Shown here one piece after another: positions 16,365-54,805 of a stretch of DNA of 64,000 nucleotides (its first letter is position 1; each line of letters starts with the position of its first letter). This stretch comes from a bacterium (lineage in GTDB: Bacteria; UBA10199; 2-02-FULL-44-16; JAAZCA01), in the NCBI GenBank assembly GCA_963674695.2, contig CAXXGI010000002.1:96001-160000 (forward strand), written 5' to 3'. Below the pieces are notes generated by a model. That model searched no databases. It had not been told where the DNA came from and saw only the letters and a list, made by a program, of their open reading frames with translations. The translations under genes and the position numbers were made by a program.

Positions 16365-16441
16365 GCGCCTGTAGCTCAGTGGATTAGAGCACCTGACTAC
16401 GGATCAGGGGGCCGGGGGTTCGAATCCTCCCAGGCGCGCCA
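16365..16441 (+). tRNA. tRNA-Arg(ACG)
   Basis: GCGCCTG/CAGGCGC acceptor stem, CCTGA-CTACGGA-TCAGG anticodon arm, GTTCGAATC T-loop, encoded CCA. Confidence 0.97.
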
Positions 16442-18156
16442 TTGACAGGAGTGGCGAACCTCATCAGTTTGGTGAGGTTCACCCTCCCGGCCGCTTCATA
16501 AAACGTGGAGCGGCCTTCTTGTTTGGGGAACATCTTGACCGGTTCGGGGAATAGGCTCTTGAAATAGGTGTTTGCCTGGACGACGTCCTGAAGCAGAATC
16601 TCGTTTAAATTAAACATGATGGGTTTGAGGGCATAGGGGGTCAAAAAACGACTTGCCGGTTCGTTGGCCTTCAGGTTCCTCAGTTTGAGTTCGAGGCCCT
16701 TCTTCCGTTTCTCCGCCTTGGCAATCGCTGTGGCCACGGTGTTCGACGCATTTCCCTTGGATATGAACTCGACCAAGTTTGACAAACTATGCTCGACCTT
16801 GCCAAGTTCTCTGAGATTTTCCTGTATCTGACGCGGGATAACGGATAGCTTCTCTTTAAGGCGGTCGTTGGTCACTTTGCAGATATGCTCGAGCGTTTTG
16901 GGGTCGTCGACCCATTCCTTGATGAAACCGAGGAAGGTGTCGTTGATCCATTCCGTCCGTGCAAGGCTTTTATTTTTACAGGTGCCCCTGCGATATGCAT
17001 TGCGGCATCCGAAGTAGCCGCCGTTTTTCCCCGACATGGAGATGAAATTTCCGCCGCACTCGCCGCACTTCATCGTTCCGGTGAAGAGGTGATTGGCCGC
17101 CCCGCGATTTTTGCCCCAGATGGATTCAGGTTTATTTCTGGCATTCCTTCGCGTCTCCTCGACGCGTTTCATCTTTACCTGAACTCTATCCCAAAGGCTT
17201 TGAGGAATGATTCGCAGGTGTTCGTGCGTCTTGACGATCCATTCATTTTGGGGCTTTGCCACGTTGATCAGTCTGTCCGTCGACGAATCGCGCCTTACGC
17301 ATGTTCTTCCGAAAATCCATATGCCGATGTACTTCGGATTAATGAGGATTCTGCGGACGACACCACCGGTCCACTTGCCGCCTTTTTTCGATGGGATATC
17401 TTCATTGTTGAATATCTTTGCAATGGCGTCGACGCCCACGTCGGTGGCATCGTAGATGTCGAATACCCTGCGAACGACCTTCGCCTCATCCTCGTTGATC
17501 ACGATGATTTTGTTGTGTGGTTCTCGGATATCTCGTTTTTTGTTTGGATCTTCATACTCGCTTGCAAAACCATACGGATTGTGTCCTGTGGATTTGCCGG
17601 CAATCGCCCGAACCTCTAAGCCTCGCTTTGTCTGGCGCGAGGTCGATTCGGAATACATCTCATTCGCCATTCCCTTGGCGATAAAGTGGATTCTTGCTCC
17701 CTGAGTATGAGAACTTATTCCTTCTGATACGGACAAGAGTTCGGCATTGTAGGCGTGAGCAAGATCGTGTGTGTCGAGGAGATTGCCAAGTTCACGGGTC
17801 AGACGAGAAAGATCGAACACCAAACCGACTTTGAAGAGACCGCATTGGATTGCCGATTTGAATGCCTCGTAGTTATCCCTGCCGACGCCGACGCGTCCCG
17901 TCTTTCCACGATCGGAGAATATCATATCCTTTGCGACGATGATCTTGCAGTCAGGAAAGAGGACGGAACGCACCTGATTTGACTTCAGGCGATGCCGGAT
18001 GAATTCAAGTTGCTCTTCCACGCTCTCATAATTCTGTCTGTTCACCGTACTCTGTCTCAGATAGACGCCGGCCTTTAACTCCGACCCCGGTTGAATGATG
18101 AGTCCGCTCTTTTCCGGGTATAACTCCTTCAGTATTTTTTGTACTTCCTGTTCCAT
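16384..18156 (-). CDS. Large serine recombinase (integrase)
   Basis: VYLRQST catalytic Ser motif, DLSRLTR, recombinase domain, CGECG..C zinc ribbon, coiled coil. Confidence 0.93.
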   Translation of the reverse strand: MEQEVQKILKELYPEKSGLIIQPGSELKAGVYLRQSTVNRQNYESVEEQLEFIRHRLKSNQVRSVLFPDCKIIVAKDMIFSDRGKTGRVGVGRDNYEAFKSAIQCGLFKVGLVFDLSRLTRELGNLLDTHDLAHAYNAELLSVSEGISSHTQGARIHFIAKGMANEMYSESTSRQTKRGLEVRAIAGKSTGHNPYGFASEYEDPNKKRDIREPHNKIIVINEDEAKVVRRVFDIYDATDVGVDAIAKIFNNEDIPSKKGGKWTGGVVRRILINPKYIGIWIFGRTCVRRDSSTDRLINVAKPQNEWIVKTHEHLRIIPQSLWDRVQVKMKRVEETRRNARNKPESIWGKNRGAANHLFTGTMKCGECGGNFISMSGKNGGYFGCRNAYRRGTCKNKSLARTEWINDTFLGFIKEWVDDPKTLEHICKVTNDRLKEKLSVIPRQIQENLRELGKVEHSLSNLVEFISKGNASNTVATAIAKAEKRKKGLELKLRNLKANEPASRFLTPYALKPIMFNLNEILLQDVVQANTYFKSLFPEPVKMFPKQEGRSTFYEAAGRVNLTKLMRFATPVNGAPGRIRTPGPLIRSQVL

Positions 18157-18250
18157 TCGGAACCCCTTTTTCTAAATAATAATTTGCAATCTGCTCGCCT
18201 AAGAAATTTAAGAATCTCTCAAACGGTTCGGAATAGGTTTTTTCATCCAC
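18026..18250 (-). CDS. Small hypothetical protein overlapping integrase start
   Basis: Start overlaps the stop of the 18243 ORF; large overlap with the integrase makes it uncertain. Confidence 0.35.
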   Translation of the reverse strand: MDEKTYSEPFERFLNFLGEQIANYYLEKGVPNGTGSTKNTEGVIPGKERTHHSTGVGVKGRRLSETEYGEQTEL

Positions 18251-18485
18251 CCATAGTCACCACCCCCTTCGTCGTTTCATTAAGCTCGCCGTTCCGACCC
18301 TGGTCTCTCTTTGAGAGACTCCTTTTCCCGTCCGCAAAGAAGTCCATCGTCATCTTCCGAAAGGCATGAAATTGATTTTCTGCCAAAGCGCTCTGTCCTA
18401 AATCAAGCATGCGTTTCATAATCCAGTCCAATGTTTGATGAACGTCCTTTGCTTTGTATTTAGCTCCATCCATAAAAAGATCCAA
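18243..18485 (-). CDS. Hypothetical protein
   Basis: 80-aa ORF co-oriented in the early operon. Confidence 0.55.
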   Translation of the reverse strand: MDLFMDGAKYKAKDVHQTLDWIMKRMLDLGQSALAENQFHAFRKMTMDFFADGKRSLSKRDQGRNGELNETTKGVVTMGG

Positions 18486-18545
18486 GTCCTTTGTCCCTTT
18501 TGTTTAACCCTAACCAAGCGATATATCGCCACAATTAGAAGCCAC

Positions 18546-18935
18546 TTACCCATCAAGGCGCATTTGCCGGTCTTCGACCCTCATCGGCTCGCGCTTCAAC
18601 TCCTCGCCAGTTTCCAGATCGACATAGACGCGTTCCTGCGCCTCGTTATCCAGAAAACACGGAAGATCTTGATTGATAGTTTTATGCCCGTACTTCAGTT
18701 CTCTGGCCGCTTCATAGGCCTCGTTCTGTAACTGTTTGATCTGGCCTTTCATGTCATCGTCGTATTCCTTTTTCTCCGATTCGAATTGTTGCATCTGCAT
18801 CAGGGCGTTAGATTGTTTTTCGCCGAGTTCTAGTTTTTCAGCATTGGTAAGAGGTAGTTTGACGTCGACATTTTGCACGCCAAGGCGATGCCAGCCTTTT
18901 TTCTTGGCCATCTGCTGTTCTGTTTCAACAGTCAT
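18546..18935 (-). CDS. Phage-like hypothetical protein
   Basis: AGGAGG RBS before ATG 18935 (MTVETEQQ); overlaps the dnaC-like stop. Confidence 0.7.
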   Translation of the reverse strand: MTVETEQQMAKKKGWHRLGVQNVDVKLPLTNAEKLELGEKQSNALMQMQQFESEKKEYDDDMKGQIKQLQNEAYEAARELKYGHKTINQDLPCFLDNEAQERVYVDLETGEELKREPMRVEDRQMRLDG

Positions 18936-19719
18936 ATTGAACCTCCTTGAGTTCTTTTCGTTTCTTGAACCTGTAGTCCGGTCCGGTGAATTCGATGCAC
19001 CGGCACATCTCGATAATGCGCGAGACAATCCTGAGCCCGAGTTTTTCATCCAGTTCCGAAAGATTGCAGTTGGTCGTAAAGATAGTCGGTAATTTAAATT
19101 CGTATCGGTGGTTAATGAGAACGAAGAGAGTTTCGAGAACCCACTCGGACGTCTTCTCAGCCCCAATGTCATCCAGCACGAGGAACCGAACCGTCTTTGC
19201 AATGTTTAGGAGATGCGTTTTCTTGCCCTGATTTTTGACGCGATCATTCATGGCCTCCCGCAACTCCAGCAGAAATTCAGGGCAGGAGATAAAGAGCGTC
19301 CCAACTGACCCAATAATCCGATTGGCAATAGCCGCTGCCATGTGTGTCTTACCTGTGCCCACCGGTCCGAAAAAGAGAAGGCCTCCGTCGTCGGACTCGT
19401 AATTCATCGCCGCATCGTAAGCATGTTTTGTCCCCGATGTTACCTCGAAGTTTTCAAATGTACGCTCCATGAATCGTGGCGAGATGCGGGAATTGCGAAA
19501 TGCCTCCTGAATCTTGGCCTGTTCCTCTCGGGCCTTTTCACGGATATTCCGTCCCTCTTCGCATCTTGGACACCGATCCTGCGGACTGAACCATTTTGGA
19601 GGCATATCCAAGAGTGCCGGGCGCAAGTACGGCTCTACCAATCGCCCACATTCGATGCATGTGCCATCTGGTGGACGATCACTCACAGACATCGGCATAT
19701 TTGTCTCGCTTACCTGCAT
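18925..19719 (-). CDS. DnaC/IstB-like helicase loader ATPase
   Basis: CxxC..CxxC N-terminus, GPVGTGKTH Walker A, LVLDDIGAE Walker B, PTIFTTN, RIVSRI. Confidence 0.9.
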   Translation of the reverse strand: MQVSETNMPMSVSDRPPDGTCIECGRLVEPYLRPALLDMPPKWFSPQDRCPRCEEGRNIREKAREEQAKIQEAFRNSRISPRFMERTFENFEVTSGTKHAYDAAMNYESDDGGLLFFGPVGTGKTHMAAAIANRIIGSVGTLFISCPEFLLELREAMNDRVKNQGKKTHLLNIAKTVRFLVLDDIGAEKTSEWVLETLFVLINHRYEFKLPTIFTTNCNLSELDEKLGLRIVSRIIEMCRCIEFTGPDYRFKKRKELKEVQYDC

Positions 19720-20686
19720 TGATTGACAATTCTCCCTTCTTTGCCCACCTGTTCAGCTCGCGAATAAAGAGCAGAAACGGATAGCCTTTTTCCCGGATTC
19801 CATTTTCTTTACATCGGAGATAGGCCTTTACCGCTCCCCGGAACACGTCATCGCTTTGAATTTTCGCCACCGTATTTTTTGCGGCACCACCTTCTTCGCG
19901 GTAGTTTCCCACGATGTATTCCCTGCCTATAGCCAGTTGATATTCCTCTGTGAAGATTTCAAGGCGTGGATGTGTCCGGCTCTTTTTTCGTGAGTCTTGT
20001 TCGTTGCCGGCAGATTTGACATCGTGCCGAACCGATGACCCGACAGGTTTGACTTCGCTCGGGGTCGAGGACCCGGTAGGTTTAACATCCCCCGGGGTGG
20101 ATGTGGTGCCGTGCACCCCCTTTTCCGAAGGAAAAGGTATATTATCTACACACTGAACACTAGGATGCATAATCGGTACATCGCTGTACGATTTCTGTAC
20201 TCCATGTGGATATGCATATGCATTGCTCGTGGATTTGCCCCATCTCTTGTTTGCGGCTCTTTTTCTGGTCAGCCGATATTCCGACTGGCGAATAAACTCT
20301 TTCAATACCGCCTCTTGAACCCACAGATCATCAACGAGCTTCCAAGAACTCTGCCTTGAATCTTCGTTGAAGATCTGTGATTTCAAACGATTCCACTCAG
20401 GATGATTGTGTGCCCATCTTTTCAGTTTTTGGTCGTCGTTGGGAAGTGTACCCGGGGGATCCTGTTGCCAGCATATACATATGAAATGCATATGCATGCC
20501 TCGCGCATCCCAGTCCATCAGCATCACGTTATTGTCTCCGAGCCACTGCTTAACGCGAAACATAAAGCCCGGAGGATGGTTGCCGGGAGACTGTTTCATG
20601 ATTTGTCTGGCCGTGTTTATCAATTGACGTATCTCCTCAATTTTCTCCTCTGGTAAATTTGCCATATGCATTTCTGTTTCCCACAT
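19679..20686 (-). CDS. Phage replication initiator-like protein (YdaU/DUF1376-like N-terminus)
   Basis: FRVKQWLGD..ARGMHMHFICICW..LPNDD motif; located directly upstream of the dnaC-like gene. Confidence 0.7.
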   Translation of the reverse strand: MWETEMHMANLPEEKIEEIRQLINTARQIMKQSPGNHPPGFMFRVKQWLGDNNVMLMDWDARGMHMHFICICWQQDPPGTLPNDDQKLKRWAHNHPEWNRLKSQIFNEDSRQSSWKLVDDLWVQEAVLKEFIRQSEYRLTRKRAANKRWGKSTSNAYAYPHGVQKSYSDVPIMHPSVQCVDNIPFPSEKGVHGTTSTPGDVKPTGSSTPSEVKPVGSSVRHDVKSAGNEQDSRKKSRTHPRLEIFTEEYQLAIGREYIVGNYREEGGAAKNTVAKIQSDDVFRGAVKAYLRCKENGIREKGYPFLLFIRELNRWAKKGELSINAGKRDKYADVCE

Positions 20687-20808: not shown

Positions 20809-21165
20809 CTAATTTTTCGGTTTATCTTTAAAACATTTTTTCTTCTCCTGATCGCCCAGCGCTTTATAGCCCGCAATGGGCTTCGTTCCCGGCTTCCAGA
20901 CAAACGTTGGGGCGTAACCGAGCTCAATAAACTTCTTCGCGGCCTCATGTGTGATCTTCCAGTTTGCAACGATCCAGTCTTCCATCGCGCTGGTCGTTTC
21001 AAAAACAGGGCTCACCGGAGTTCCTTCACTCACGTTTTCATAAATTTGATAACAGGTCGCCTCTTCTGAATTCCACTGCGGCATGTCTGAAAGCGGTTCG
21101 TATTTTCCTTTTGCATCCCTTGGGTGTTCCCAATTTTTAGGAATCCGCCTGATCTCCCGTCCCAT
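20809..21165 (-). CDS. Conserved phage hypothetical protein
   Basis: MGREIRRIPKNWEHP..YQIYENVSEGTPVSPVF; RBS before ATG 21165. Confidence 0.65.
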   Translation of the reverse strand: MGREIRRIPKNWEHPRDAKGKYEPLSDMPQWNSEEATCYQIYENVSEGTPVSPVFETTSAMEDWIVANWKITHEAAKKFIELGYAPTFVWKPGTKPIAGYKALGDQEKKKCFKDKPKN

Positions 21166-22054
21166 AACCTTCTCCTTTCCCATTGCCATTACCGTTTTTT
21201 CTCTTTTCCTGTAATCTCCGAACTTTTTCAGCCAGCGCCTCTGTCTTGTTTGCATGATTTCCGTTTTGCGGCTCCGACTCCAGCCCCGGGAATATCTCAT
21301 CTATCTTGGCATCGCCGTCTTTGATCGCGGTTCTCACACCCGTCAATGTCTCCAATTCATTCAGGCCAATTTCGGAGACACTCTTTTTGCCAATTGCCTG
21401 CAGTATCCGCTGTTCCGATATCCCCATCTTGGCAAAATACTCTATTGCCCTGTAGCGACGCTCAGCGAGCGTTGACGAATCGCCGACCGCTTTCTGCTTT
21501 GCCGCAAGATAGATGGAATCGATCAGCGATTTTGGAACGACCTTAAAGATGACATTTCTAAGGGCAATTGCGCAGGCAGCGTTCGACGCTAACGTGATGA
21601 GGTCTTCATTATATTTCTTGCCGTTACTGTAGGTGATACGCCTCTTGACCTCGAGTGTCATGGCGACGTTTCGTTCGAGATCGTGAGCCATCCCTTGTGC
21701 CACGACACAGCCTTCTTCTTCGCGTACGATGCGGGCGGCATATCTCAAATTTCGCCAGCATGAGCCGGCGATCTCTGCAAGACGTACACCCGGACCTTCG
21801 ATATAGGTCTGAATCCACTCGCCGGTGACCTCATCCTTCTTCTTGCGCGGGAGTTTGTAAAAGCACGATGCCGCTGTATCTTCGTCTGCGATTGCAATGG
21901 CCAAGGCTTCTTTTCTAAATTGCTCGATGTCTCTTGGATACCTGTGAGCGGTTGCGATCTGTATATCGATCTCTTCGTGAAGTCCCATGGTGTTATTCAC
22001 CGGAACGATTCTTGCTTCCTGTACCTGCATCTCCTGTGCGTTTGATCCGTTCAT
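21137..22054 (-). CDS. Putative single-strand annealing/recombination partner of YqaJ exonuclease
   Basis: IATAHRYPRD..GPGVRLAE motif; translationally coupled to the YqaJ gene. Function inferred from position. Confidence 0.55.
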   Translation of the reverse strand: MNGSNAQEMQVQEARIVPVNNTMGLHEEIDIQIATAHRYPRDIEQFRKEALAIAIADEDTAASCFYKLPRKKKDEVTGEWIQTYIEGPGVRLAEIAGSCWRNLRYAARIVREEEGCVVAQGMAHDLERNVAMTLEVKRRITYSNGKKYNEDLITLASNAACAIALRNVIFKVVPKSLIDSIYLAAKQKAVGDSSTLAERRYRAIEYFAKMGISEQRILQAIGKKSVSEIGLNELETLTGVRTAIKDGDAKIDEIFPGLESEPQNGNHANKTEALAEKVRRLQEKRKNGNGNGKGEGYGTGDQADS

Positions 22055-22923
22055 ATTCTCACCTCCTGTGCCTTCTTGAATCTGGCCACTCGGTATGTTG
22101 ATGCGGCGACCAGATATTCCTTTCGGGCCTGCTCAAAATAGGTGACCCTCCCAAGGTCACAGTCTGCGGCCTCGGCATCACTTAACAGCGTGAGTAAAAT
22201 CTGCTCGGCCTCTTTTTTGTCCTTGTCGGCAAGTCTCAAGACCTCTTTTGCATCGAGCCATTTTTTGACGACATCCGATTCGACCGAAACGACCTTGTTT
22301 GGTACGCGGCGGATCCTCTTTAGGAGAGAGATGGCGGGGAGATTATCTTCGGGTGGAATTTCCTTTTTCACATTATCGTGCCAGAACGTTAGCTCGATAT
22401 CCTCAAGGTCTTTGATGAATGTGTCATTTCGTTCTATCTTATAAAGTCTGAAACCGACACCACCGAGCAAAACCGGAACCCAGATCAGTTTCATCCCAGG
22501 AACCACAGCCATCTGATGCTGGCATTGAACGATGACCCGCTCGGGCACTTCATCGCTGTGAGGCTCTCCCCATTCTGTCGGTTCATAGGGGCCGGTGATT
22601 CCGGTTGTCTTCGCCTCGACACCTTCCGGAGAACCGACAACCTCGGCATCAAGGTTTGCCGCCATGATTCCGTTTGTGTGAACGCGGTTGCGATTCCTTC
22701 TAATCTTCTGACCCGTCTCCTTCATGAACCAGTTGAGGACTGCATCCTCGCAAAGATTTCCAACCTCCATTGCGTCTGACGTCTTCTCCTCATCCAGCTC
22801 TTTTACCTTGGAAAAGTAGACGTCCGCGATATTGCGGAAGTGATCGACCCCGACAATCGCGGGGGCATCACTCGATCCAAGGTAGTTCCTTCTCCTCTGT
22901 CTTTGTGTTTCTGTTATTGGCAT
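22051..22923 (-). CDS. YqaJ/lambda-exonuclease family protein
   Basis: RRNYLGSSDAPAIVG, ANLDA..EAKT, QCQHQMAV motifs. Confidence 0.9.
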   Translation of the reverse strand: MPITETQRQRRRNYLGSSDAPAIVGVDHFRNIADVYFSKVKELDEEKTSDAMEVGNLCEDAVLNWFMKETGQKIRRNRNRVHTNGIMAANLDAEVVGSPEGVEAKTTGITGPYEPTEWGEPHSDEVPERVIVQCQHQMAVVPGMKLIWVPVLLGGVGFRLYKIERNDTFIKDLEDIELTFWHDNVKKEIPPEDNLPAISLLKRIRRVPNKVVSVESDVVKKWLDAKEVLRLADKDKKEAEQILLTLLSDAEAADCDLGRVTYFEQARKEYLVAASTYRVARFKKAQEVRI

Positions 22924-23400: not shown

Positions 23401-23637
23401 TTATGCCTCATCTTTATCCTTCAGAAACGCCATAAGTTCCTCGGGAGGCGTGTTTGTTGCCTTAGCAATTTTGATGAGATGTTTGATGGGCATTTCCCCG
23501 GTAGATTGATCCCGTTCCCATCGCGAAACTGTCGACATGTGAACACCGACCATTGTGGCCAATCTTGTCTGCGAGAGACCCGATCTACGTCTAACAGTCC
23601 TAATTGCCTCCCCAATTGTTAGATGTTTAGTAATCAC
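23401..23637 (-). CDS. Cro-like XRE HTH regulator
   Basis: IRTVRRRSGLSQTRLATMVGVHMSTVSRWE; divergent from the 23758 repressor. Confidence 0.85.
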   Translation of the reverse strand: MITKHLTIGEAIRTVRRRSGLSQTRLATMVGVHMSTVSRWERDQSTGEMPIKHLIKIAKATNTPPEELMAFLKDKDEA

Positions 23638-23757: not shown

Positions 23758-24174
23758 ATGTTGAAGATAACGAAAGAGGACCTGCTTAAGCGAATTCGAA
23801 TGCTCAGAAAAAAGGCCGGTATCAGCCAAAAGATCATAGCCGACCGGTTAGGGCTCGACCAGACGACATATTCGGCCATGGAACGGGGCCGCCAGAAGAT
23901 ATTTGTTGAATATTTAATTACCATAGCAGATGTCATTGGGGTGGAGGTATGGGAACTCTTTGCGGATCCGCAGAAGGCTGGCCTCCTAGATGATGAAGCT
24001 AAACGTTTTTTTGAAATGTGGTCCCGTTTCAACAATAATGAAAAGCATGTTTTGATGGAGATGGCGGACCAGATCATTCAAAAGAAAGATCTGGAACTCC
24101 ATGATCCTGATGTGGACTGCAATGAAGATTGCGATGATAAAAGGGGCGACGAGAAAAAGGTGCAGACAGGCTGA
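23758..24174 (+). CDS. CI-like XRE HTH repressor
   Basis: RIRMLRKKAGISQKIIADRLGLDQTTYSAMERG; no S24 peptidase domain evident. Confidence 0.85.
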   Translation: MLKITKEDLLKRIRMLRKKAGISQKIIADRLGLDQTTYSAMERGRQKIFVEYLITIADVIGVEVWELFADPQKAGLLDDEAKRFFEMWSRFNNNEKHVLMEMADQIIQKKDLELHDPDVDCNEDCDDKRGDEKKVQTG

Positions 24175-44079: not shown

Positions 44080-44088
44080 GGTTTGTTA

Positions 44089-44817: not shown

Positions 44818-44818
44818 A

Positions 44819-45583
44819 ATGAAATCAGGACTATACATGTACTCTGTAATTCGTGTCGATGAAGATTGTTCATTCGGTCCTATTGGCCTTAGCGAGGATT
44901 CGGCAAAGGGGGAAGATGTTTATGTCGTAAGATTCAATGACATAGCCTGCGTGGTCAGCACCTCGGAGGTAAAGGAATGGGAGATAAACCGGGATAATGT
45001 GGTCAGGCATCAGAAGGTCAACGAAGAGGTTATGAAAACCTATACCACGTTGCCTATCAAGTTTTGTACCATCGCTGAAAGCAGCGATCAAATCGTCGAA
45101 AAGTTTCTAAAAAGTCGTTATGATGAGTTGATCGAGAAAATCGATTACTTCTCGGATAAGCGTGAATATGGTGTCAGGGCACACTGGATTGACATGGAAA
45201 AAACATATGAAGAACTTTTGGCTGAAAAGCCTCGTCTCAAGGAGTGGCGTGATCGCCTTGCCAAACTCCCATTTGAGAAGGCGCGAAATGACATGATCAT
45301 CATTGGTGAAGAGGTTCAAAAGGCCTTGAAGAATAAAAAGGAACTTTTCGGAGAAGAACTTTTTGAAGAGTTAAAACCCCTGTCCATAGAGGCAAAGACG
45401 GGAAAGATTATGGGTGATCGCATGGTCTTGAATGGTGCCTTTCTGATTCTTAAGGCGGCACAAAGGGACTTTGATGCCCGTGTAAATGTGCTGTCGGAAA
45501 AACATAAGCACGACCTGAAATTTCGATATGTGGGACCGACCCCGCCGGCAAACTTTATCGAGATCGTGGTCAGTTGGGATTGA
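44819..45583 (+). CDS. GvpF/L family gas vesicle protein
   Basis: HQKVNE, LPIKF, GPTPPANF. Confidence 0.92.
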   Translation: MKSGLYMYSVIRVDEDCSFGPIGLSEDSAKGEDVYVVRFNDIACVVSTSEVKEWEINRDNVVRHQKVNEEVMKTYTTLPIKFCTIAESSDQIVEKFLKSRYDELIEKIDYFSDKREYGVRAHWIDMEKTYEELLAEKPRLKEWRDRLAKLPFEKARNDMIIIGEEVQKALKNKKELFGEELFEELKPLSIEAKTGKIMGDRMVLNGAFLILKAAQRDFDARVNVLSEKHKHDLKFRYVGPTPPANFIEIVVSWD

Positions 45584-45586
45584 CGT

Positions 45587-45835
45587 ATGGGACTACTCTT
45601 TAACTTATTGGGTGCGCCTCTTGTAGGCCCGATCAAACTCACGCAGTGGGTGGCTGAAAAGATCAAAGAGGTAGCTGATCAACGGTTGGGAGATGAGGAA
45701 AAACTCAAATCGGAGCTTATTGAATTGCAGATGATGAGGGAGATGGATGAGATTGGTCAGGAGGCGTTTGAAAAGAAGGAAAAGGAGATTTTAAATGCAA
45801 TCAATGCAGCAAAAGAAAGAAAAAATAGGGGGTAG
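45587..45835 (+). CDS. gvpG: Gas vesicle protein GvpG
   Basis: LLGAPL..WVAEKI..L.ELQM..EI..EAFE.KE.EIL. Confidence 0.85.
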   Translation: MGLLFNLLGAPLVGPIKLTQWVAEKIKEVADQRLGDEEKLKSELIELQMMREMDEIGQEAFEKKEKEILNAINAAKERKNRG

Positions 45836-45837: not shown

Positions 45838-46101
45838 ATGAATATAAATGAGGCAAAGGGTAAGGTCGCGCAATTTATCTCCAAGGAATTAGGCAAGGAC
45901 ACCCAAGCTATAAAGTTCCTAAAACTTGCCAAAGAAGGTGAGAACTGGAGCTCGAGCGTGGAGATAACGGAGCAGAATGAATACATGAAAAAATTGGGTT
46001 ACCCGCCGATCTTCGATAAAAATGTGTACAAGATCGAACTCGATGATGCCGGCGAGGTAACCAGTTTTTGCAAAAAAGGCGAAGAGGAAGAGGAGTTTTA
46101 A
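45838..46101 (+). CDS. GvpO/GvpR-like gas vesicle protein
   Basis: W..SVEITE..YKIELDDAGEV. Confidence 0.65.
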   Translation: MNINEAKGKVAQFISKELGKDTQAIKFLKLAKEGENWSSSVEITEQNEYMKKLGYPPIFDKNVYKIELDDAGEVTSFCKKGEEEEEF

Positions 46102-46103
46102 CT

Positions 46104-46195
46104 CGTATCTCGTCGTTCGTATCTCGTATCTCGCAATTCATCAGTGAGACGTTTCTTACGAGATACGCTTCACGAGATACGTTTCACGTAATACG
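46104..46195. repeat. Gene-less inverted heptamer hairpin element
   Basis: CGTATCT CGTCGTT CGTATCT CGTATCT .. TCTTACG AGATACG CTTCACG AGATACG TTTCACG TAATACG. Confidence 0.9.
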
Positions 46196-46202
46196 AGGCA
46201 AA

Positions 46203-48206
46203 ATGGGCGCAGGAGAAACACAAAATACTATTATTGGGGATGCTTCACAGCTTATCTTCGTCGGAGGTAAAGGAGGCGTAGGTAAGACCACTACTGCCGC
46301 TGCCCTCGCCCTTTCGTTAGCTAGAAAATTGCCAGATCACAAAATCGTGATTATTTCCACCGATCCCGCCCATTCCCTTTCTGACAGTTTTGGGATAGCG
46401 ATTGGTGGTGAGAAACCAGTTAGAATAATTACAAAGGGCAACTCAAACCTTTATGCCCAGGAACTCGATGCTGGTTCTCTGCTCAACAAATTCAAGAATG
46501 AAAATGAGGCAGAGATAAAATTACTGGCAGAGCGTGGAACATATTTTGACTCGGATGATATCCAGAGTTTTTTTCGCCTCTCCCTTCCCGGCATTGACGA
46601 AGTGATGTCTGTTTTGGAGATAGGCAGACTGCTTAAGGACGATAATATAAAACATCTGATAGTCGATACTGCCCCAACCGGTCATACCCTGTCGCTGCTT
46701 CGTTTGCCAAAGTTGCTTACAACATGGGTCGATGTTTTTGACCTTTTACAGGAAAAACACCGCATATTGCAGAGGCATTTTTCCGGCAAGGTGGTCAAAG
46801 ATAATGTAGATAATTTTATAGAAGTCATGCGTGGGGATATCAGGGATGTAAGAAATATAATTCAGGACAGGAACAAGTCCCAATTCATCGTTGTAATGCT
46901 GCCGGAGATGCTCAGCCTATTTGAATCAAAGAGGCTTATCGATACGTTAAAGAAACAAGGGATGCCGCTCCATAGTTTGGTATTAAATGGTATTCAAAAT
47001 GCCGGTAGCTGCATTGTTTGTAAGGCGGTTCGTGAAAAGCAGGAAAAAGTGATATCCCTATTAAAAGATAATTTCGCCGGTCTAAGTATTCATCAGGTAC
47101 CGCTCTCCACGCATTCTATTCAGGGCACGCAGGGTCTTGAATGGTTTGCTGCCCATTTAGAGGGCAGAAGCAGCGAAAAGGAAATGTATCTCGCAAATAA
47201 GAGATCACAAGACACCAAGGTACCAAATGCCAGGTATGAGCCACGATTTCATCAGGCATCTTTATCTAAACTACTAAAAGGTTCTCCAAAACTATTCATA
47301 GTCGGTGGCAAGGGCGGTGTAGGTAAGACCACTGTCTCGTGTTGTACATCTATAATGATAGCGGCCAGAGAACCGTCAAAGAAATTTCTGATCTTTTCCA
47401 TCGATCCGGCCCACTCGCTTTCCGATTGTCTAGGGATAAAGATAGAGAGCCGTGAGGCCAAGGTATGTGAGAATCTCTATGCCTCAGAGCTCAATGCCAA
47501 ACTACTTTTAGATGATTTCAAAAAGGAATACACCGACACTATCGATAATCTCTTTGATAAATTCTTTCAAGGTAGCACTTTAAACGCCGGCATGGATTTC
47601 ACTCATGATCGCAAGGTAGTTAAAGCCCTGATAGAGATGACTCCGCCGGGACTGGATGAATTGATGGCCCTGTATCAGGTAATAAATCTGATAAAAGGAG
47701 ACGGAAAGTATGATGCCATCGTCTTCGATACCGCACCCAGCGGCCATCTTTTTCGTTTTCTGGAACTGCCCCATCTGGTGAGAGAATGGCTAAAGGCGAT
47801 ATTCCAACTACTCATAAAATATAAACAGGCCATATCTCTTGGACCGGCTGCAGAAAAGTTGGTTGGGTTGTCTAAGAATATCAGGGAGATCATAGAGATC
47901 ATGCAGGATGAGAGCTTGTGCCGGACCATTGTCGTGTCGACGCCGGAGGCAATGGTGGTCTCGGAGACAAAGAGGTTTGTGAAAAATCTCGAACGCCTTG
48001 GAGTGCCGAGGAACCTCACCATCATCAATATGCTACGTGAAAATACAGAGTGCGATTTTTGCCGCGAAATAAGAAGAGGTCAGGAAGATATGTTGGAGGA
48101 GTTAAAAAAAATGGTATCCAAAGAGTGGATATCTATCCCCTTTCTACCGGAGGATATCAGGGGAATAGATAATTTAAATAAACTGGGCAAGGAGATATAT
48201 CATTAG
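46203..48206 (+). CDS. Tandem-domain ArsA/GET3 family ATPase
   Basis: Two GGKGGVGKTT / DPAHSL / DTAP(T/S)GH modules with CxxC. Confidence 0.92.
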   Translation: MGAGETQNTIIGDASQLIFVGGKGGVGKTTTAAALALSLARKLPDHKIVIISTDPAHSLSDSFGIAIGGEKPVRIITKGNSNLYAQELDAGSLLNKFKNENEAEIKLLAERGTYFDSDDIQSFFRLSLPGIDEVMSVLEIGRLLKDDNIKHLIVDTAPTGHTLSLLRLPKLLTTWVDVFDLLQEKHRILQRHFSGKVVKDNVDNFIEVMRGDIRDVRNIIQDRNKSQFIVVMLPEMLSLFESKRLIDTLKKQGMPLHSLVLNGIQNAGSCIVCKAVREKQEKVISLLKDNFAGLSIHQVPLSTHSIQGTQGLEWFAAHLEGRSSEKEMYLANKRSQDTKVPNARYEPRFHQASLSKLLKGSPKLFIVGGKGGVGKTTVSCCTSIMIAAREPSKKFLIFSIDPAHSLSDCLGIKIESREAKVCENLYASELNAKLLLDDFKKEYTDTIDNLFDKFFQGSTLNAGMDFTHDRKVVKALIEMTPPGLDELMALYQVINLIKGDGKYDAIVFDTAPSGHLFRFLELPHLVREWLKAIFQLLIKYKQAISLGPAAEKLVGLSKNIREIIEIMQDESLCRTIVVSTPEAMVVSETKRFVKNLERLGVPRNLTIINMLRENTECDFCREIRRGQEDMLEELKKMVSKEWISIPFLPEDIRGIDNLNKLGKEIYH

Positions 48207-48220: not shown

Positions 48221-48580
48221 ATGGCTATAAAACCCGAAATGAAGGAGAGGGAGACGCTCGCTGATGTCCTTGATCGCGTATTGGATAAGGGACTCGTGAT
48301 CAATGCGGACATAGCGGTGTCGCTGGCAGGAACGGAACTCCTGGGTATCAAGATCAGGGCCGCCCTAGCCTCGTTCGAGACAGCGGCTCGCTACGGACTG
48401 CAGTTTCCTTCGGACACCAAACTGGATCTTCCTATATGGAAAGAGGCCAAGGTGGTCAAGGAGGAGTGTCCGCAGTGTGAAAAAAGGGTTGCCCGTCAGG
48501 AACTGCTGGAGAGTGGCTGTCCATGGTGCGGCTTTATGCCTAAACGTGGCATTGAGGCAGCACCTGCTGCGAAAAAATAG
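48221..48580 (+). CDS. gvpJ: GvpJ/GvpA-family protein with C-terminal zinc ribbon
   Basis: LADVLDRVLDKGLVI..ASFETA..YG, then CPQC..CPWCG. Confidence 0.8.
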   Translation: MAIKPEMKERETLADVLDRVLDKGLVINADIAVSLAGTELLGIKIRAALASFETAARYGLQFPSDTKLDLPIWKEAKVVKEECPQCEKRVARQELLESGCPWCGFMPKRGIEAAPAAKK

Positions 48581-48887: not shown

Positions 48888-49178
48888 ATGAAAATCGATC
48901 TCGAAGGGGATAATCTTAAGGGGAGTCTCTTGGGGCTGGTCATAGCCATAGTAGAGATACTACACGAAACCCTTGAACATCAAGCCTTGCGGAGGATGGA
49001 TGGTGAGAGTCTTTCAGAGGCGCAGATCGAGCGTTTGGGTAATTCACTTATGAAACTCAAAGAGACGATAGAAGAGTTAAAGGAAGAACAGGGTATTTGT
49101 GAGGCAGTTCATAGCCTTCGCAAACAGTTAGATGGTCTTGTTGATGGATCTATATGGTCAGGGAGGGAAAAGGTATGA
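48888..49178 (+). CDS. gvpK: Gas vesicle protein GvpK
   Basis: LLGLVIAIVEIL..LEHQALRRM..LSEAQIERLG. Confidence 0.9.
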   Translation: MKIDLEGDNLKGSLLGLVIAIVEILHETLEHQALRRMDGESLSEAQIERLGNSLMKLKETIEELKEEQGICEAVHSLRKQLDGLVDGSIWSGREKV

Positions 49179-49927
49179 GCGAAGGATATTATCTTTATTG
49201 TATTGTTGACGGTTCCGACAACGCTTCGCTAGGGCCGATAGGCGTCGATGATTCTTTTGTCATCACTATTTCAAATAAGGATATCTCTGCGGTCGTCCAT
49301 CATGTCACAGGAGATGTAAAGATCGAAGACACTGAAAAATCATTACAATGGGTGGGGAAGCATCAATCCGTGGTAGAAGAGGCATGGAAAAAATATAAGA
49401 CCGTCCTCCCCTTTGCCTTTGGTACGATTATTAGGGGCGATGAAGGTGAACTCAAAAAATGGATGGAGAAGGAGCATGACCGGTTGGTAAAAAGTATGAT
49501 GAAGGTAAAGGGCAAAGCGGAATATGGTGTGCAGATATTCTGGTTTCCTTCAAGATGCCTCGATCAACTTGTAAATTCCAGCGCAGAACTAAAAGACCTC
49601 AAGAAAAAATCAGAAGGGGAAAATTCCGGTACAGCCTATATGTATAAGAAGAGGTACGAAAAGGCCTTGAAGGACGAAATAGAACATAAGGCCTCGGAAC
49701 TTTTTAGGAGTTTCTTTGAGCGTATTAAAGCGTGTGTGACCGAAATAACGGTGGAAAAGATCAAGACCCTTGAGGAGGACAAACAGATGTTACTCAATGT
49801 GTCCTGTCTGGCCGACGAAGGTCAGGTGGAGGTGTTGGGTAATGTCCTTGAAGATATAGGGGCCGGCGAGGATCATCCGGTGCGATTTACCGGACCATGG
49901 CCCCCCTATTCATTTGTAGGTATGTAA
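49175..49927 (+). CDS. GvpF/L family gas vesicle protein
   Basis: YLYCIV, HQSVVE, VLPFAFGT, FTGPWPPYSF. Confidence 0.92.
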   Translation: MSEGYYLYCIVDGSDNASLGPIGVDDSFVITISNKDISAVVHHVTGDVKIEDTEKSLQWVGKHQSVVEEAWKKYKTVLPFAFGTIIRGDEGELKKWMEKEHDRLVKSMMKVKGKAEYGVQIFWFPSRCLDQLVNSSAELKDLKKKSEGENSGTAYMYKKRYEKALKDEIEHKASELFRSFFERIKACVTEITVEKIKTLEEDKQMLLNVSCLADEGQVEVLGNVLEDIGAGEDHPVRFTGPWPPYSFVGM

Positions 49928-49930: not shown

Positions 49931-50170
49931 ATGAAACCCATTCGAGAAAAAGAGGCGACGCTAGTAGACCTGCTGGATCGCTTGTTGGACAAAGGCCTAG
50001 TGTTAAACGCCGATCTGGTGATCACTATGGGTGATGTCCCCCTGATCGGTATCAACCTGAAAGCGGCCATTGCCGGGATGGAGACCATGCTGCAATATGG
50101 ATTGATGAGAGAGTTTGATAAAGAGGTCAGCGAAGAGCGTGAAGCGTATCTCGTGAAGAGTGAAGCGTAA
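49931..50170 (+). CDS. GvpJ/M/S-type GvpA-family minor protein
   Basis: TLVDLLDRLLDKGLVL..AAIAGMETMLQYG. Confidence 0.85.
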   Translation: MKPIREKEATLVDLLDRLLDKGLVLNADLVITMGDVPLIGINLKAAIAGMETMLQYGLMREFDKEVSEEREAYLVKSEA

Positions 50171-50734: not shown

Positions 50735-50775
50735 AGCGTGAAAAACGAGATACGCTTCACGAAATACGAGATGCG
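50716..50775. repeat. Inverted heptamer element
   Basis: CGTGAAA CGTCGTT CGTGAAG .. AGATACG CTTCACG AAATACG AGATGCG, then RBS and ATG 50783. Confidence 0.88.
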
Positions 50776-50782
50776 AGGAAAA

Positions 50783-52534
50783 ATGGCAGTAATAGGTATA
50801 GATCTCGGCACAACTTATAGCGTTGTGTCCTACATTAAAGATGGTGTGCCAACTATTATACCCAATGCAGAGGGTGAAGATCTCACACCTTCAATAGTCG
50901 GGTTTGATAATTCCGGCCATGTCTTTGTGGGTAAGCTTGCCGAAGAGAGATCTATTCTGGATTCAGAGGGGACCGTTCGCTCAATAAAGAGAAAAATGGG
51001 GAGCGATTTTACGGCGTTGGTCCGCGGACGATACTATACCCCAACCATGATATCATCCTTTATTCTCGGAAAACTTAAAAGGGATGCCGAGAGTTGTCTT
51101 GGTGAGAAAGTTTCAGAGGCGGTTATTACTGTTCCAGCATATTTTAGTGATAAGGCGCGGGAGGCGACGAAAAATTCTGCCGAAATTGCCGGACTTAAAG
51201 TTTTGAGGATCATCAACGAACCTACGGCAGCAACGCTTGCCTATGGCATTTCTCAAAAAGAAGGTGAACAGGTCATGGTCTGGGACCTCGGCGGTGGCAC
51301 CTTCGATGTGTCTATCCTCGAGTTCTCCGGCGGTGTTTACGAGGTTAAATCTACAAGTGGTGATATGAAACTGGGCGGAGACGATTGGCGCGACGCCTTA
51401 TCACGGCACTTCTTAGACCTTCTTTGCAATCAATACAAATCTGATTTTGTAGAGACTCCGGATATGTTGAACCGCATATTGCTCATTAGCGAAAAAGCCA
51501 AGAAGGATCTCACCAATAATGAAGAGACGAATATCAGCTTATCATTTCCCGGCTCTGAGGGTAAGTGGCATGTGGGGCGGATTGTTGTAACTCGTCAGGA
51601 ATTTGAATCACTGTCATCGCATTTATGCGATAGATTGATCCTCCCGGCCAAGCAGGCATTAAAGGACGCAAGGGTGACGACCGGAGACCTCGATAAAGTT
51701 ATTCTTGTAGGCGGGGCAACCCGGATGCCAATGGTCAGGCAGAGAGTAGCCGAATTTGCAGGCAGAGAACCATATATTGATATCGATCCTGATAAAGTAG
51801 TGGCCGTTGGTGCTGCGATACAGGCGGGGATACTTACCGGCGCACTAAAGAAGGCGGTGCTGGTTGATGTAATTCCACTGTCGCTTGGGATAGAGACGCA
51901 GGGGGGAATATTCACCAAATTAATCGAACGCAATACAAAGGTGCCGATATCTAAAGATAGGATATTTACTACGGCAATGGACAATCAGCCCGAGGTGGAA
52001 ATACACGTCTTGCAAGGGGAAAGAGCGCTCGCCGAACACAATGTCTCTCTTGGTAATTTCACGCTTACTGAAATACCGGAGGCATCGAAGGGAATTCCAA
52101 AGATCAGCGTAATCTTCTCGGTCGATATAAACGGCATACTAAATGTCCGTGCCGAAGATGTCTATACCGGAAATGAGAGGGAGATGATTGTGCGGTCGGA
52201 TCGCCTGCAGCAGGATGATATCAATAAGTTGATTAAAGAAGCAGAAAACTACAAGGAGAACGATGATCTCCTTAAGGACACGATAGTCGCCAGGGTTGAA
52301 CTGGAGAGGATTGTGGAAGCGGCCAAACAGTCTATTGATGAGATGAAAATACAATCGTCCGACAAATCTTATAAAGAGGTGGTTTTATTGATTGAGAAGG
52401 CAGAGGACATGTTATCAAACGGCGATTTAATGGGGTTGAAAGAGATATCTCAAAACATAGAGGATACGATGGATTTAATATATGATAGGTGGAAAAACGA
52501 AACAAAAGAGGCCGAGCCAGCAACGGCAGGATGA
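50783..52534 (+). CDS. Hsp70/DnaK-family chaperone (accessory)
   Basis: IGIDLGTT, VITVPAYF, INEPTAA, DLGGGTFD, LVGGATRMP. Confidence 0.93.
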   Translation: MAVIGIDLGTTYSVVSYIKDGVPTIIPNAEGEDLTPSIVGFDNSGHVFVGKLAEERSILDSEGTVRSIKRKMGSDFTALVRGRYYTPTMISSFILGKLKRDAESCLGEKVSEAVITVPAYFSDKAREATKNSAEIAGLKVLRIINEPTAATLAYGISQKEGEQVMVWDLGGGTFDVSILEFSGGVYEVKSTSGDMKLGGDDWRDALSRHFLDLLCNQYKSDFVETPDMLNRILLISEKAKKDLTNNEETNISLSFPGSEGKWHVGRIVVTRQEFESLSSHLCDRLILPAKQALKDARVTTGDLDKVILVGGATRMPMVRQRVAEFAGREPYIDIDPDKVVAVGAAIQAGILTGALKKAVLVDVIPLSLGIETQGGIFTKLIERNTKVPISKDRIFTTAMDNQPEVEIHVLQGERALAEHNVSLGNFTLTEIPEASKGIPKISVIFSVDINGILNVRAEDVYTGNEREMIVRSDRLQQDDINKLIKEAENYKENDDLLKDTIVARVELERIVEAAKQSIDEMKIQSSDKSYKEVVLLIEKAEDMLSNGDLMGLKEISQNIEDTMDLIYDRWKNETKEAEPATAG

Positions 52535-52544
52535 AAAAAGCCTG

Positions 52545-53126
52545 ATGGAATCGTCTGCCGGCATCCTGATGTCAGAGGAGAGCAGATGGTGCATGGGAAA
52601 GTGTAATGCAGCCCAGCGTGCCATTGACTTTTTTTCAGATCATCAGGTTATGTGGTCATGTCCATATAAAGATATTGCAAGCCTGAATATGGAGGAACGA
52701 CCATTCGCATTTGGCACCAAGAAGGCGTTGAGGGTAGAGTATCGGTGTAATGGTCAATTAAAGCTGGTCTGGCTTGTCCTAGTTGAATATCAAAAACTGG
52801 AGAAGATTATCAGGGTTCGTGCCTTCCCATGCGCATTATCAGAGGAAGACATATGCTGCGTGGCGGGGGGCGTTGATAACGTCAGCGAACAGTTTTTATG
52901 GTATCTCTGGAAAAAGCAGCATGCCACAATCGATGAACTGACCGCACTCGGCATCATTGACGATCCTGAGGAGGTATTGAAGAAGATCAAAGGGGTCATA
53001 AATCCAGTCGCCGAAGAGATACTGGGATATCCTTTGTTTGTTTTCAGGAATACAAGATTTGATCCGGCGACCAACAGGACATTTGAAAACTGCTGGTGCA
53101 TATTTGATCCGATGAGTGACTTATGA
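52545..53126 (+). CDS. Hypothetical protein
   Basis: ORF in operon; start uncertain. Confidence 0.55.
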
Positions 53127-54322
53127 GTATGAAATTCAAAAGAGTAAATCAACTTCCCCCATATCAACTGGGAATAGTTGCCGGACTTATGAAAGAGGCT
53201 CGCCTGCGGGGAGAGGATATTATTAATTTAGGGATGGGGAATCCTGACCTTCCCACTCCCCAGAGGATCGTGGATAAACTGAAAGAGGCCGCCGACAAGC
53301 CGGCTAATCATCGCTATTCACTGTCACGAGGTATTCCTAAACTTCGGGAGGCTGTCTGTGATTGGTATCGGCGTCGATTCAATGTGGATATCGATCCGGA
53401 AACTGAGGCAGTGGTTACCATTGGTGCCAAGGAAGGTCTGTCGCACCTGATGCTAGCCACCACCGAGCCCAACAACATCGTCCTTGTCCCCGATCCCGGA
53501 TATCCGATCCATAGGTACGCCGCCGTCATTGCCGGGGCGTTTACCCAGAGTATCAAGATCGATGGTGAATCAGATATCTTGACCAACCTGGAAGGTGTTT
53601 TGAGGGCACAGGGCCTGTTGGTTAAGGTGCTGATCCTGAATTTCCCGTCAAATCCCACGACTCAGGTGGTGGATATTACCTTTTTTAAGCGGGTTGTAGA
53701 GCTGGCACGGGAGTACGATCTGCTTATTGTCCACGATTTTGTCTATGCCGATTTCTGTTTCGACGGTTATCAGGCCCCTTCCATTCTGGAGGTCGAGGGC
53801 GCCAAGGATGTGGCAGTTGAGCTTACCTCCTTATCAAAGAGTTACTCTATGCCCGGTTGGCGTGTCGGTTTTGTATGTGGAAATAAGGAGGTCATCTCTG
53901 CACTTGCTAAACTGAAAAGCTATGTCGATTATGGCATGTTCCAGCCGATCCAGATCGCCTCTACTGTGGCCCTGAATCACTCTGAAGATAATGTAAAAGA
54001 GATTATCGCAACATACAAAAATCGTCGTGATGTCTTATGCGATGGATTAAATAAGATTGGATGGAATGTACCCCGGCCGCAGGCCACGATGTTTGTCTGG
54101 GCGAGGATTCCGGATCAATTTATAGAAATGGGATCCATTGCCTTTAGCAAACTCATTTTGGAGAAGGCAAAGGTTGCCGTGAGTCCCGGGATAGGATTTG
54201 GCGAACACGGCGAGGGATATATCCGTTTCGCATTGGTCGAAAATGAACAGCGTATAAAACAGGCCGTTCGAGGTATTAAATTGCTTATGTCGGAAGATTC
54301 CACAATACCGAAGAAAAAATGA
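53123..54322 (+). CDS. PLP aminotransferase class I/II (AlaC-like)
   Basis: [37 protein letters not shown]. Confidence 0.9.
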
Positions 54323-54382
54323 TCCTCTGTTGTAGCTGCAACAAGAGGATGATACGAAACAACCAAAGGAAAGGGGGAAGTC

Positions 54383-54805
54383 ATGGAGGTAACACCTGAA
54401 GTCCAGACGGCACTATGGACGGGGATGAGTACGGTGCAGATTGTAGGTGCTCTAGCAATCGGCGTGGTGTTCTATCTATTCTTTGCCTTCTGTCTGGCGA
54501 TGATCGCCAAGCGATTAGGGAGGCCATTTGGAAAGAGCCTTATCATGGCCATCATCCCGATTGCTAATGTGATCCTAATCCTTCAGATGGCCAGAAAACC
54601 GTGGTGGTGGATATTCCTGCTATTGATTCCGATTTTGAACATCGTTCTCTGCGTCCTGATATGGATGTCCATCTCAAAGGCAAGGGGCAAACCCGGATGG
54701 TGGGGCATAATAATTGCTTTGGTCCCGATAGTTGGAGCCATCTTTTTCCTGATCCTGACCTTTGGGAAGGCAAAAGCCGCTTCACCGACTCCGACAGCCG
54801 CGTAA
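54383..54805 (+). CDS. Membrane protein (DUF5684-like)
   Basis: Four hydrophobic helices; AIIPIAN, KPWWW. Confidence 0.7.
   Translation: MEVTPEVQTALWTGMSTVQIVGALAIGVVFYLFFAFCLAMIAKRLGRPFGKSLIMAIIPIANVILILQMARKPWWWIFLLLIPILNIVLCVLIWMSISKARGKPGWWGIIIALVPIVGAIFFLILTFGKAKAASPTPTAA

Follow-up and report, generated by a model that had tools for sequence, protein, structure and literature searches.

A 64,000-nucleotide (nt) stretch of bacterial DNA (positions 96,001 to 160,000 of contig CAXXGI010000002.1, assembly GCA_963674695.2; hereafter the window) carries a gas vesicle (gvp) module of 30 kb and ~34 genes, all on the plus strand and comprising regulators, gvp genes and chaperones, within a low-GC island that begins at a tRNA-Arg(ACG) gene and reaches past the window's right end. 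The best explanation of the whole, to which we would give a probability of about 0.7, is that the island is one integrated temperate contractile-tailed phage genome and that the gvp module is carried by it as lysogen cargo. Measured from core to core of its left and right attachment sites (attL and attR), the island is 89,647 bp long and runs from window position 16433 to 106080 (positions past 64000 are window numbering extrapolated along the contig; contig numbering itself is prefixed C2, the window being C2:96001-160000, and a further 55 kb beyond the window was taken in). The host genome, in three contigs, totals 3.03 Mb at 58-59% GC.

The layout of the island is that of minus-strand integrase, replication, recombination and cro-like genes, followed by a plus-strand cI-like gene, ~48 kb of plus-strand cargo and finally minus-strand late genes. 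At the tRNA, GC falls from ~0.60 to 0.41-0.50, and it stays low to the end of the window (on the contig, the low-GC stretch lasts from C2:~112.4 kb to ~202-203 kb; early genes 48.5%, gvp module 44.3%, Hma defence genes 45.2%, late genes 47.3%, flanks 60%), and an earlier, sequence-only reading of the window had therefore seen just the first 48 kb of a ~90-kb island. That reading proposed a gas vesicle system carried as cargo on a tRNA-integrated, phage-derived element, a proposal that the present analysis supports: the tRNA, serine integrase, replication and YqaJ genes, cro/cI pair, regulators, gvp genes and defence operon that it named are all present (Pfam, PHROGs, NCBIfam, PADLOC), and the below-host GC that it described across early, gvp and defence genes is confirmed up to the window's end. 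Its right boundary of 54805 is correct for the gvp module, whereas the element itself ends 42 kb past the window, at C2:202086.

Attachment sites at the tRNA-Arg(ACG) gene

The integration target is the sole Arg-ACG tRNA among the genome's 43 tRNAs and hence belongs to the host, not to the phage. A 7-bp core within its 3′ end recurs identically at attR (Table 1), and in a blastn comparison of window 16001-16700 with the whole contig, direct repeats of the tRNA 3′ end near the right end did not exceed 13 nt. The duplicated tRNA end anticipated downstream by the earlier reading thus exists as an identical core plus a degenerate tRNA-like arm, and no longer duplicate accompanies it. A short identical core without long direct repeats at the ends is characteristic of large serine integrases, for which only such a core and a degenerate arm are expected.

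The same comparison returned an 18-nt inverted match with one mismatch. One copy consists of the first 6 nt of the tRNA and the 12 nt before them, the other is C2:202080-202097; this second copy sits exactly where GC recovers, directly outside attR. We read it as the tRNA's own displaced 3′ trailer: with the acceptor-stem strands complementary, the trailer should look like this if it pairs with the leader. In an empty site rebuilt by script, leader, acceptor stem and trailer form a ~20-bp stem followed by a T-run (-58.6 kcal/mol, versus -45.4 kcal/mol for the present-day junction), and leader-trailer complementarity, judged by eye, is similar in two of six loci from relatives of the host (L015, L017). 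To the left of the attR core, the phage arm resembles the tRNA T-arm and acceptor end with a spacing of 5 extra bases. In one model, serine integrases read the half-sites of the phage attachment site (attP) ~5 bp further out than those of the bacterial site (attB), and the extra 5-bp spacing would fit this model. The serine integrase would have recombined a phage attP, its left arm mimicking the tRNA T-arm and acceptor end, with the 3′ end of the tRNA gene.

The integrase has a Y-L-R-Q-S motif at residues 32-36, an instance of Y-x-R-x-S with its serine at about residue 36, which we take to be the serine-recombinase catalytic motif carrying the nucleophile. Its open reading frame (ORF) crosses attL, such that its final ~16 codons are read from the strand complementary to the tRNA; when the excised configuration is read through by script, it yields a protein of 604 amino acids (aa) with a different tail, as against 590 aa in the prophage, and this crossing of the attachment site could couple the form of the integrase to the state of integration. 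Large serine integrases of the phiC31, Bxb1 and A118 type have the same domain architecture, short core and lack of long repeats, and differ from the present case in that here the target is a tRNA 3′ end, the attP arm is tRNA-like and the integrase ORF lies over the attachment site. Serine integrases that target a tRNA and cross their own site seem to be uncommon. Neither the attB nor the attP junction form occurs among assembled public contigs, which drop rare variants and thus do not inform on excision; loose contig ends at 16441 and 16444, considered as excision forms, fail to match the trailer and probably derive from tRNA genes of other organisms.

Relatives of the host offer a view of the unoccupied locus. 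The left-flank gene encodes a beta-eliminating lyase present in 17 of 31 relatives' genomes, from which six loci were fetched. All six, each from a family-level relative, have tRNA-Arg(ACG) directly between the left-flank gene and the small right-flank gene, with a 683-aa gene next in five and GroEL in four (one locus is cut short by a contig start); integrase and gvp genes are missing at the tRNA in every one. The orientation of the tRNA relative to the left-flank gene (L015-L020) is the same in three relatives and opposite in three. In G001, one of the six, 1.6 kb of toxin-antitoxin-like genes, bracketed by several partial copies of the tRNA 3′ end, lie between gene and tRNA. tRNA-Arg(ACG) looks like a recurrent hotspot of integration or inversion in the host's family.

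Contigs bearing tRNAs and conserved domains of other organisms pile up in the same sequencing runs, so that the source seems to be a mixed sample, and low-GC DNA of another organism might have been mis-joined to the host contig in assembly. Such a chimera is extremely improbable: both junctions lie exactly at the tRNA 3′ end and its displaced trailer, host synteny resumes on the same contig, and an independent public contig of 25,745 nt from one run (the stretch was found in three runs of one study) corresponds to window 14001-26313 with 0 differences, crossing attL and the junction between repressor and sensor kinase genes at a depth of 13.3 throughout, host flank and phage being equal. The sequence-only reading had named three observations that would count against it, and the data fall on the other side of each: attR lies at extrapolated position 106080 and not before 24 kb, all six relatives' loci are empty sites rather than gvp clusters lacking an integrase, and the contig is free of mis-joining at the two places checkable (attL and the repressor-to-kinase junction).

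Outside the island, the first ~4 kb of the window (1-4800) likewise have a reduced GC (50-55%) and carry the gene for a 1128-aa VWA-domain protein, and a match to an rve-type transposase lies directly upstream of the window at C2:95572-95793; window 1-4800 may be a second, small foreign segment.

The phage backbone and its cargo slot

The part of the island beyond the window contains an uninterrupted minus-strand late block. It starts with a T4-type large terminase (TerL), a probable small terminase, a Mor-like activator, a sigma-70-like protein and an Amidase_2 endolysin, continues with two large unknowns in tail-fibre position, baseplate J, gp25, a gp5/V spike and a tape measure, and ends with a T4-type baseplate hub, gp19-type tube, sheath, neck protein, major capsid protein, maturation protease and portal (head-module families: Terminase_6N/phrog_2, portal phrog_3753, major head protein phrog_3922 (Phage_capsid_4), protease phrog_8158). 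AbiEii/AbiEi and two DNA methylases, one of them fused to ParB, occupy the right end of the element. The earlier statement that capsid and tail genes are absent holds inside the window and fails for the element, whose head, tail, lysis and terminase module lies directly downstream. Terminase, portal, capsid, protease, contractile tail, lysis gene, attachment sites and empty site, the features by which a Caudoviricetes prophage is recognized, are all represented, and the late structural ORFs align essentially full length with three relatives and so show no sign of decay. From its predicted gene content the island is a myovirus-like prophage, and the presence of head, tail, lysis and terminase genes makes a tailed temperate phage the likely vehicle of the gvp cargo.

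At the other end, the cI-like gene is divergent from the cro-like gene and 120 nt away from it, and the cargo begins directly downstream of the cI-like gene on the same strand. We refer to the interval between the repressor and terminase genes, ~48 kb here, as the cargo slot. Several small early ORFs have no family match; the product of the ORF at 19679..20686 is probably the replication initiator, given its position.

Searches for portal and capsid homologues in 93 genomes of the class (the same 93 serve for the phylum) found the portal in five other genomes and the capsid in four, with one complete comparator, a prophage of genome G067. This prophage occupies C6:~95.8-156 kb of a 289-kb contig, its size of ~60 kb being taken from gene content and the GC break (one 17-nt match was tried as its attachment core and rejected, as it lies inside ORFs). 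Matches to 41 of the island's ORFs are found there, from both halves and in the same order, with identities of 73% for TerL, 78-79% for the capsid, 76% for the sheath, 63% for the portal, 74/66% for AbiE and 66% for the ParB-methylase (37-79% for late proteins overall; early genes in Table 1). The serine integrase is 34% identical, and its ORF overlaps a tRNA-Glu by 39 nt (L052:15812-15885). The two prophages therefore have in common a backbone and its order (serine integrase over a tRNA, DnaC-like, cro/cI, terminase, tail, head, portal, AbiE, ParB-methylase), whereas the G067 prophage differs in its smaller size, its tRNA-Glu site and its cargo, SIR2+HerA, Kdp and regulators in place of gvp and Hma. 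Its slot holds ~17 kb, namely SIR2+HerA, KdpABC with KdpDE, a PTS EIIA and a kinase/regulator pair. On this comparison of sequences, the repressor-to-terminase interval is a variable cargo slot of the phage family. The complete Kdp potassium-uptake operon (L053:3308-19182, in G067:C6) is a second large physiological operon seen as slot cargo.

That G067 carries both halves around different cargo indicates that the halves of the island belong together, and this bears on the possibility of two elements in tandem at the tRNA, an integrase-bearing gvp/defence island and a separate prophage to its right. Such an arrangement would account for cargo and structural genes lying on opposite strands and for the slight GC differences between blocks; we nevertheless consider it very unlikely. 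Family searches across the whole genome put a single serine recombinase within the 89.6 kb and neither a tyrosine integrase nor an rve transposase, and by blastn neither the tRNA end nor the core context is repeated internally. Early genes are confined to the left half and structural genes to the right: the right block is without integrase, repressor or replication genes, the left block is without structural genes, and the same two blocks are joined around other cargo in the G067 prophage. A Mu-like transposable phage, prompted by the Mor-like gene and the inverted terminal match, was rejected, since there is no DDE transposase and the tRNA trailer explains the match.

Two further observations concern the phage itself. 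A trypsin-like protease gene, on the opposite strand between tail tube and sheath (C2:185729-186475; extrapolated window 89729-90475), looks like a small moron in the tail module. Groundwater metagenome contigs of a different study match the early genes at 19959-20686 and 22391-23604 with ~92-93% nucleotide identity, so close phage relatives circulate elsewhere; the groundwater run gave no convincing gvp part.

The gas vesicle module, its regulation and the adjoining defence genes

GvpA of the island matches NCBIfam NF006874 at 123.7 bits (cut-off 100), and the Pfam matches of the gvp set comprise PF06386 five times together with PF05120, PF05121 and PF00741. All five GvpF/L proteins of the genome are encoded in the island, a family search finding none elsewhere. 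None of the module proteins has a Pfam or NCBIfam match to proteins of GvpO or GvpC type, which are needed in some model systems; conserved unknowns of 185, 195, 110, 87, 77, 179 and 214 aa could substitute for them.

Table 1. Features of the island within the window (window coordinates, except where prefixed C2; aa, amino acids)
Feature	Position	Strand	Evidence and remarks
tRNA-Arg(ACG), integration target, host gene	16365..16441	+	ARAGORN
Large serine integrase, 590 aa	16384..18156	-	Pfam Resolvase (PF00239), Recombinase (PF07508), Zn_ribbon_recom (PF13408), above cut-offs; phrog_95
attL core GGCGCGC	16433..16439		identical attR core at C2:202080-202086 (extrapolated window 106080-106086)
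DnaC-like helicase loader	18925..19719	-	Pfam IstB_IS21; phrog_50; 57% identical to G067 counterpart
Early-operon protein	19679..20686	-	no family match; 48% identical over 132 aa to gene beside the G067 DnaC-like gene
Recombination protein	21137..22054	-	PHROGs, phrog_3657
YqaJ/RecE-like exonuclease	22051..22923	-	Pfam/PHROGs; forms recombination pair with phrog_3657 protein
cro-like HTH, first gene of leftward early operon	23401..23637	-	Pfam HTH_3; 66% identical to G067 counterpart
cI-like HTH repressor	23758..24174	+	Pfam HTH_3, phrog_3; 57% identical to G067 counterpart
Sensor kinase (MEDS, multi-PAS, HisKA, HATPase), first gene of gvp module	24319..28032	+	Pfam
Four-helix-bundle protein, 23S rRNA IVP family	28076..28435	+	bracketed by one inverted REP-like pair; missing from G014 cluster
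Receiver protein, 208-aa unknown, PAS histidine kinase, sigma-54 activator	28488..32073	+	Pfam
Two ParA/MinD-like ATPases, 251-aa unknown between	32088..34727	+	Pfam/NCBIfam
Two -24/-12-like elements in 830-nt gap before gvpA1	34743-34758, 35356-35371	+	suggestive only
Three tandem gvpA	35555-35773, 35885-36091, 36168-36383	+	218-nt direct repeat family
Two coiled-coil-like unknowns, then DnaJ-type zinc-finger protein (37663-38082)	36519..38082	+	all three kept in G014
GvpN AAA+ ATPase	38140..39114	+	TIGR02640, 345.6 bits (cut-off 266.8)
Hsp20-like protein	39495..40085	+	family profiles
CDC48-family double AAA+ ATPase	40140..42308	+	family profiles
Four GvpF/L paralogues, first fused to J domain, then GvpG (45587-45835)	42320..45835	+	Pfam GvpL_GvpF, GvpG
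Tandem ArsA/Get3-type ATPase	46068..48206	+	family profiles
GvpJ-like	48221..48580	+	Pfam/NCBIfam
GvpK	48888..49178	+	Pfam/NCBIfam
GvpL (fifth GvpF/L)	49154..49927	+	NF045778, 208.6 bits (cut-off 200)
GvpM-like	49931..50170	+	Pfam/NCBIfam
DnaK-like Hsp70, 214-aa unknown, class I/II aminotransferase, DUF5684 membrane protein	50738..54805	+	Pfam/NCBIfam
capH-like HTH	54970..55416	+	43% identical to phage repressor (BLASTP), paralogue
HmaA SNF2 helicase, HmaB DUF1156 methylase, 208-aa unknown, HmaC DUF499 ATPase	54970..64000 (block)	+	PADLOC, Pfam; HmaC ends at 65339

Inverted repeats resembling repetitive extragenic palindromes (REP; CGTATCTCGTGAAGCG and its complement) stand between genes of the module at 28033-28062, 28443-28475, 39446-39529, 46104-46199, 50145-50235 and 50718-50772. 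Public contigs of three runs include a variant in which 28063-28445 is swapped for 24 other letters, with loss of the IVP-family gene.

The sigma-54 enhancer-binding protein (30682-32073) has the GAFTGA loop, and the host genome encodes rpoN. -24/-12-like sites lie upstream of gvpA in three of five clusters, namely the present one, that of the same-order genome G014 (256 nt) and that of L063 (75 nt); the other two have none. The activator, together with host RpoN, would drive gvpA from -24/-12 promoters, cued by the module's own sensor kinases; as cargo in repressor orientation the module would be expressed from the lysogen, which would make gas vesicles and gain buoyancy.

The defence block adjoining the module is a restriction-like Hma system by PADLOC, with consecutive genes matching PDLC00659 (E 2.5e-198), PDLC00661 (6.7e-129) and PDLC00662 (6.1e-120). 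Downstream of HmaC the cargo continues with an unknown of 797 aa, then a SIR2-like protein, a nuclease resembling Cas4 and a capP-like M78 peptidase (C2:167115-168071). The last of these lies ~15 kb from the capH-like HTH gene, such that the pair brackets the Hma, SIR2-like and Cas4-like genes; it may be a damage-sensing switch that serves either the defence genes or the prophage itself. The moron modules of lambda rexAB type are alike in being cargo on the repressor strand, beside the immunity region, with defence genes included; they differ in scale and nature from the 30-kb, ~34-gene organelle system found here, with its own two-component and sigma-54 circuitry.

Provenance of the module and its proposed carriage by phage

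The GvpF/L family is found in three of 22 genomes of the order. One of these, G014 (JBDRGF010000014.1, a metagenome-assembled genome (MAG)), has a cluster fully collinear with window 27172-53126 at 45-93% amino-acid identity (GvpN 82-83%, GvpA 88-96%); its contig ends at the position matching 27172, inside the sensor kinase gene, and collinearity stops at 53126. The order of sensor kinase, regulators, ParA-like, gvpA, gvpN, CDC48, four gvpF/L, G, ArsA, J, K, L, M-like, Hsp70 and 214-aa gene is the same in both, the G014 cluster differing in its two gvpA, against three here, and in lacking the IVP-family gene. For GroEL the identity of host and G014 is 83%, about the same as for GvpN, which makes G014 a relative of the donor lineage and not a recent donor. 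The 57.8-kb G014 contig contains no island-like phage genes and, as far as that contig shows, no mobile element.

A 5.5-kb fragment from the host's own family (L031 = G003:C41) combines gvpA with a DnaK-like gene and a fusion of GvpF/L to a J domain, arranged differently and at 60.5% GC; given this native GC, gas vesicle genes with Hsp70 partners are also native in the host's family. The next-nearest GvpN proteins (58-66%) come from MAGs labelled Chlamydiae, Gammaproteobacteria, Deltaproteobacteria, Chloroflexota and Coprothermobacterota, and the labels of the nearest GvpN relatives cover at least six phyla in a patchy cross-phylum spread. None of 25 loci of GvpN relatives has island phage genes within 10 kb of gvp. 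In tetranucleotide composition the gvp module correlates more closely with the late genes (0.88) and with G014 (0.85) than with the host (0.75), which modestly favours arrival of the module together with the phage; on this reading of its composition, the module would have travelled with the phage rather than joined it afterwards.

Several observations weigh against the best explanation, its regulatory part included. The 89.6 kb of the island may exceed head capacity, the sole complete relative being ~60 kb with a capsid protein 78-79% identical. In the circular map TerL and portal are split by early genes and cargo, which is unusual. The gvp module, at 44.3% GC, lies 3-4 points under the phage core (47-48.5%), and the G014 cluster is chromosomal (~40% GC, beside [FeFe]-hydrogenase, NuoE/F-like and RlmH genes). 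Matches to the textbook sigma-54 consensus with one mismatch, 4 in the window against 1.87 expected, are not above chance (11 of 100 shuffles reach 4), and the relaxed -24/-12 pattern, with 4 matches against 0.22 expected, was chosen after the site had been seen.

Part of this evidence points to a different history, in which a phage of ~45-60 kb sat at the tRNA and the gvp module, perhaps with Hma, entered its slot later in the lysogen, leaving an element too large to package and a module never delivered by phage. The size of the G067 relative, the lower GC of the module, the chromosomal setting of the closest cluster and the pair of paralogous HTH genes that bracket the module (43% identical, a possible recombination scar) all speak for such a grounded prophage. 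We think it unlikely, without being far-fetched: the module is bounded by no recombinase, transposase or repeat pair, its oligonucleotide signature is nearer to the late genes than to the host, and the structural genes all look intact.

Packaging bears on the same choice. TerL is of T4 gp17 type; the GenBank phage closest by both capsid (37%) and TerL (39%) has a record of 75.5 kb, and terminases related more distantly belong to phages of 160-190 kb. Headful packaging tolerates genomes below head capacity, so the 60-kb relative sets no ceiling, nor does it lend any support to a capacity of at least 90 kb. Packaging of this T4 type would let the phage family bear cargo of widely differing sizes.

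In some haloarchaea, gvp clusters are borne on plasmids, and Serratia sp. ATCC 39006 has a gvp cluster with an NtrC-type regulator. The island resembles the former in placing gvp on a mobile replicon and the latter in having a sigma-54-type activator inside the cluster; it differs from both in that the vehicle is a tailed prophage and the chaperones (CDC48, ArsA, DnaK/DnaJ-like) are of the G014-type set. We know of no vehicle that has been shown to move 10-30 kb of gvp genes between bacteria.

Homologues of GvpA and GvpL (GvpF/L) were absent from 50,697 GenBank phage records searched by tblastn. In IMG/VR, GvpN gave 10 pattern matches, none of which was confirmed, and a GvpA search with two peptide patterns, too narrow to prove absence, gave 12 weak or partial loci; tblastn of all 34 module proteins against these found short GvpA-like stretches in six of the 12 and nothing else. 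Three of the IMG/VR sequences (L035, L036 and L037, 22-125 kb) have 2-3 GvpA-like stretches within ~1 kb, with 30-70% identity over 22-65 residues, and no other gvp gene. The portal matched a single IMG/VR fragment (62% identity), whose 26 kb are not enough to reveal a cargo slot.

The literature, supplements of papers not being covered, yielded no description of a gvp cluster on a phage. A metatranscriptome study of a meromictic lake (PMC12032784) assigns a highly expressed structural gene for gas vesicles to a predicted viral contig; second in expression was a NorQ-like gene, of the AAA+ family that GvpN would seem to resemble. The text consulted gives this single gas vesicle gene and describes no cluster, attachment sites or phage backbone. 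That of a second paper (PMC11302927) does no more than note gas vesicle genes of a host that were induced along with a prophage.

That prophage cargo brings about lysogenic conversion is known, and what is new here is an unusually large and complex payload. The further claim, that the temperate phage is transmissible and equips any host that it lysogenises with a complete, self-regulated gas vesicle organelle, is possible, and we put it somewhat short of even odds. Phage transfer of an organelle becomes directly testable with a prophage whose ends are defined, whose structural genes look intact and in which the only gvp genes of the host reside, and a module that brings its sensors, sigma-54 activator and chaperones along is, by its compactness, of interest for gvp acoustic reporters. 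If the claim is true, the phage family uses a size-tolerant slot beside its repressor to move multi-gene systems, gas vesicles here and Kdp in a relative. Gas vesicle clusters are scattered over unrelated phyla; buoyancy, should the claim hold, would be a trait conferred by phage, with lysogeny converting the position of the cell in a stratified habitat.

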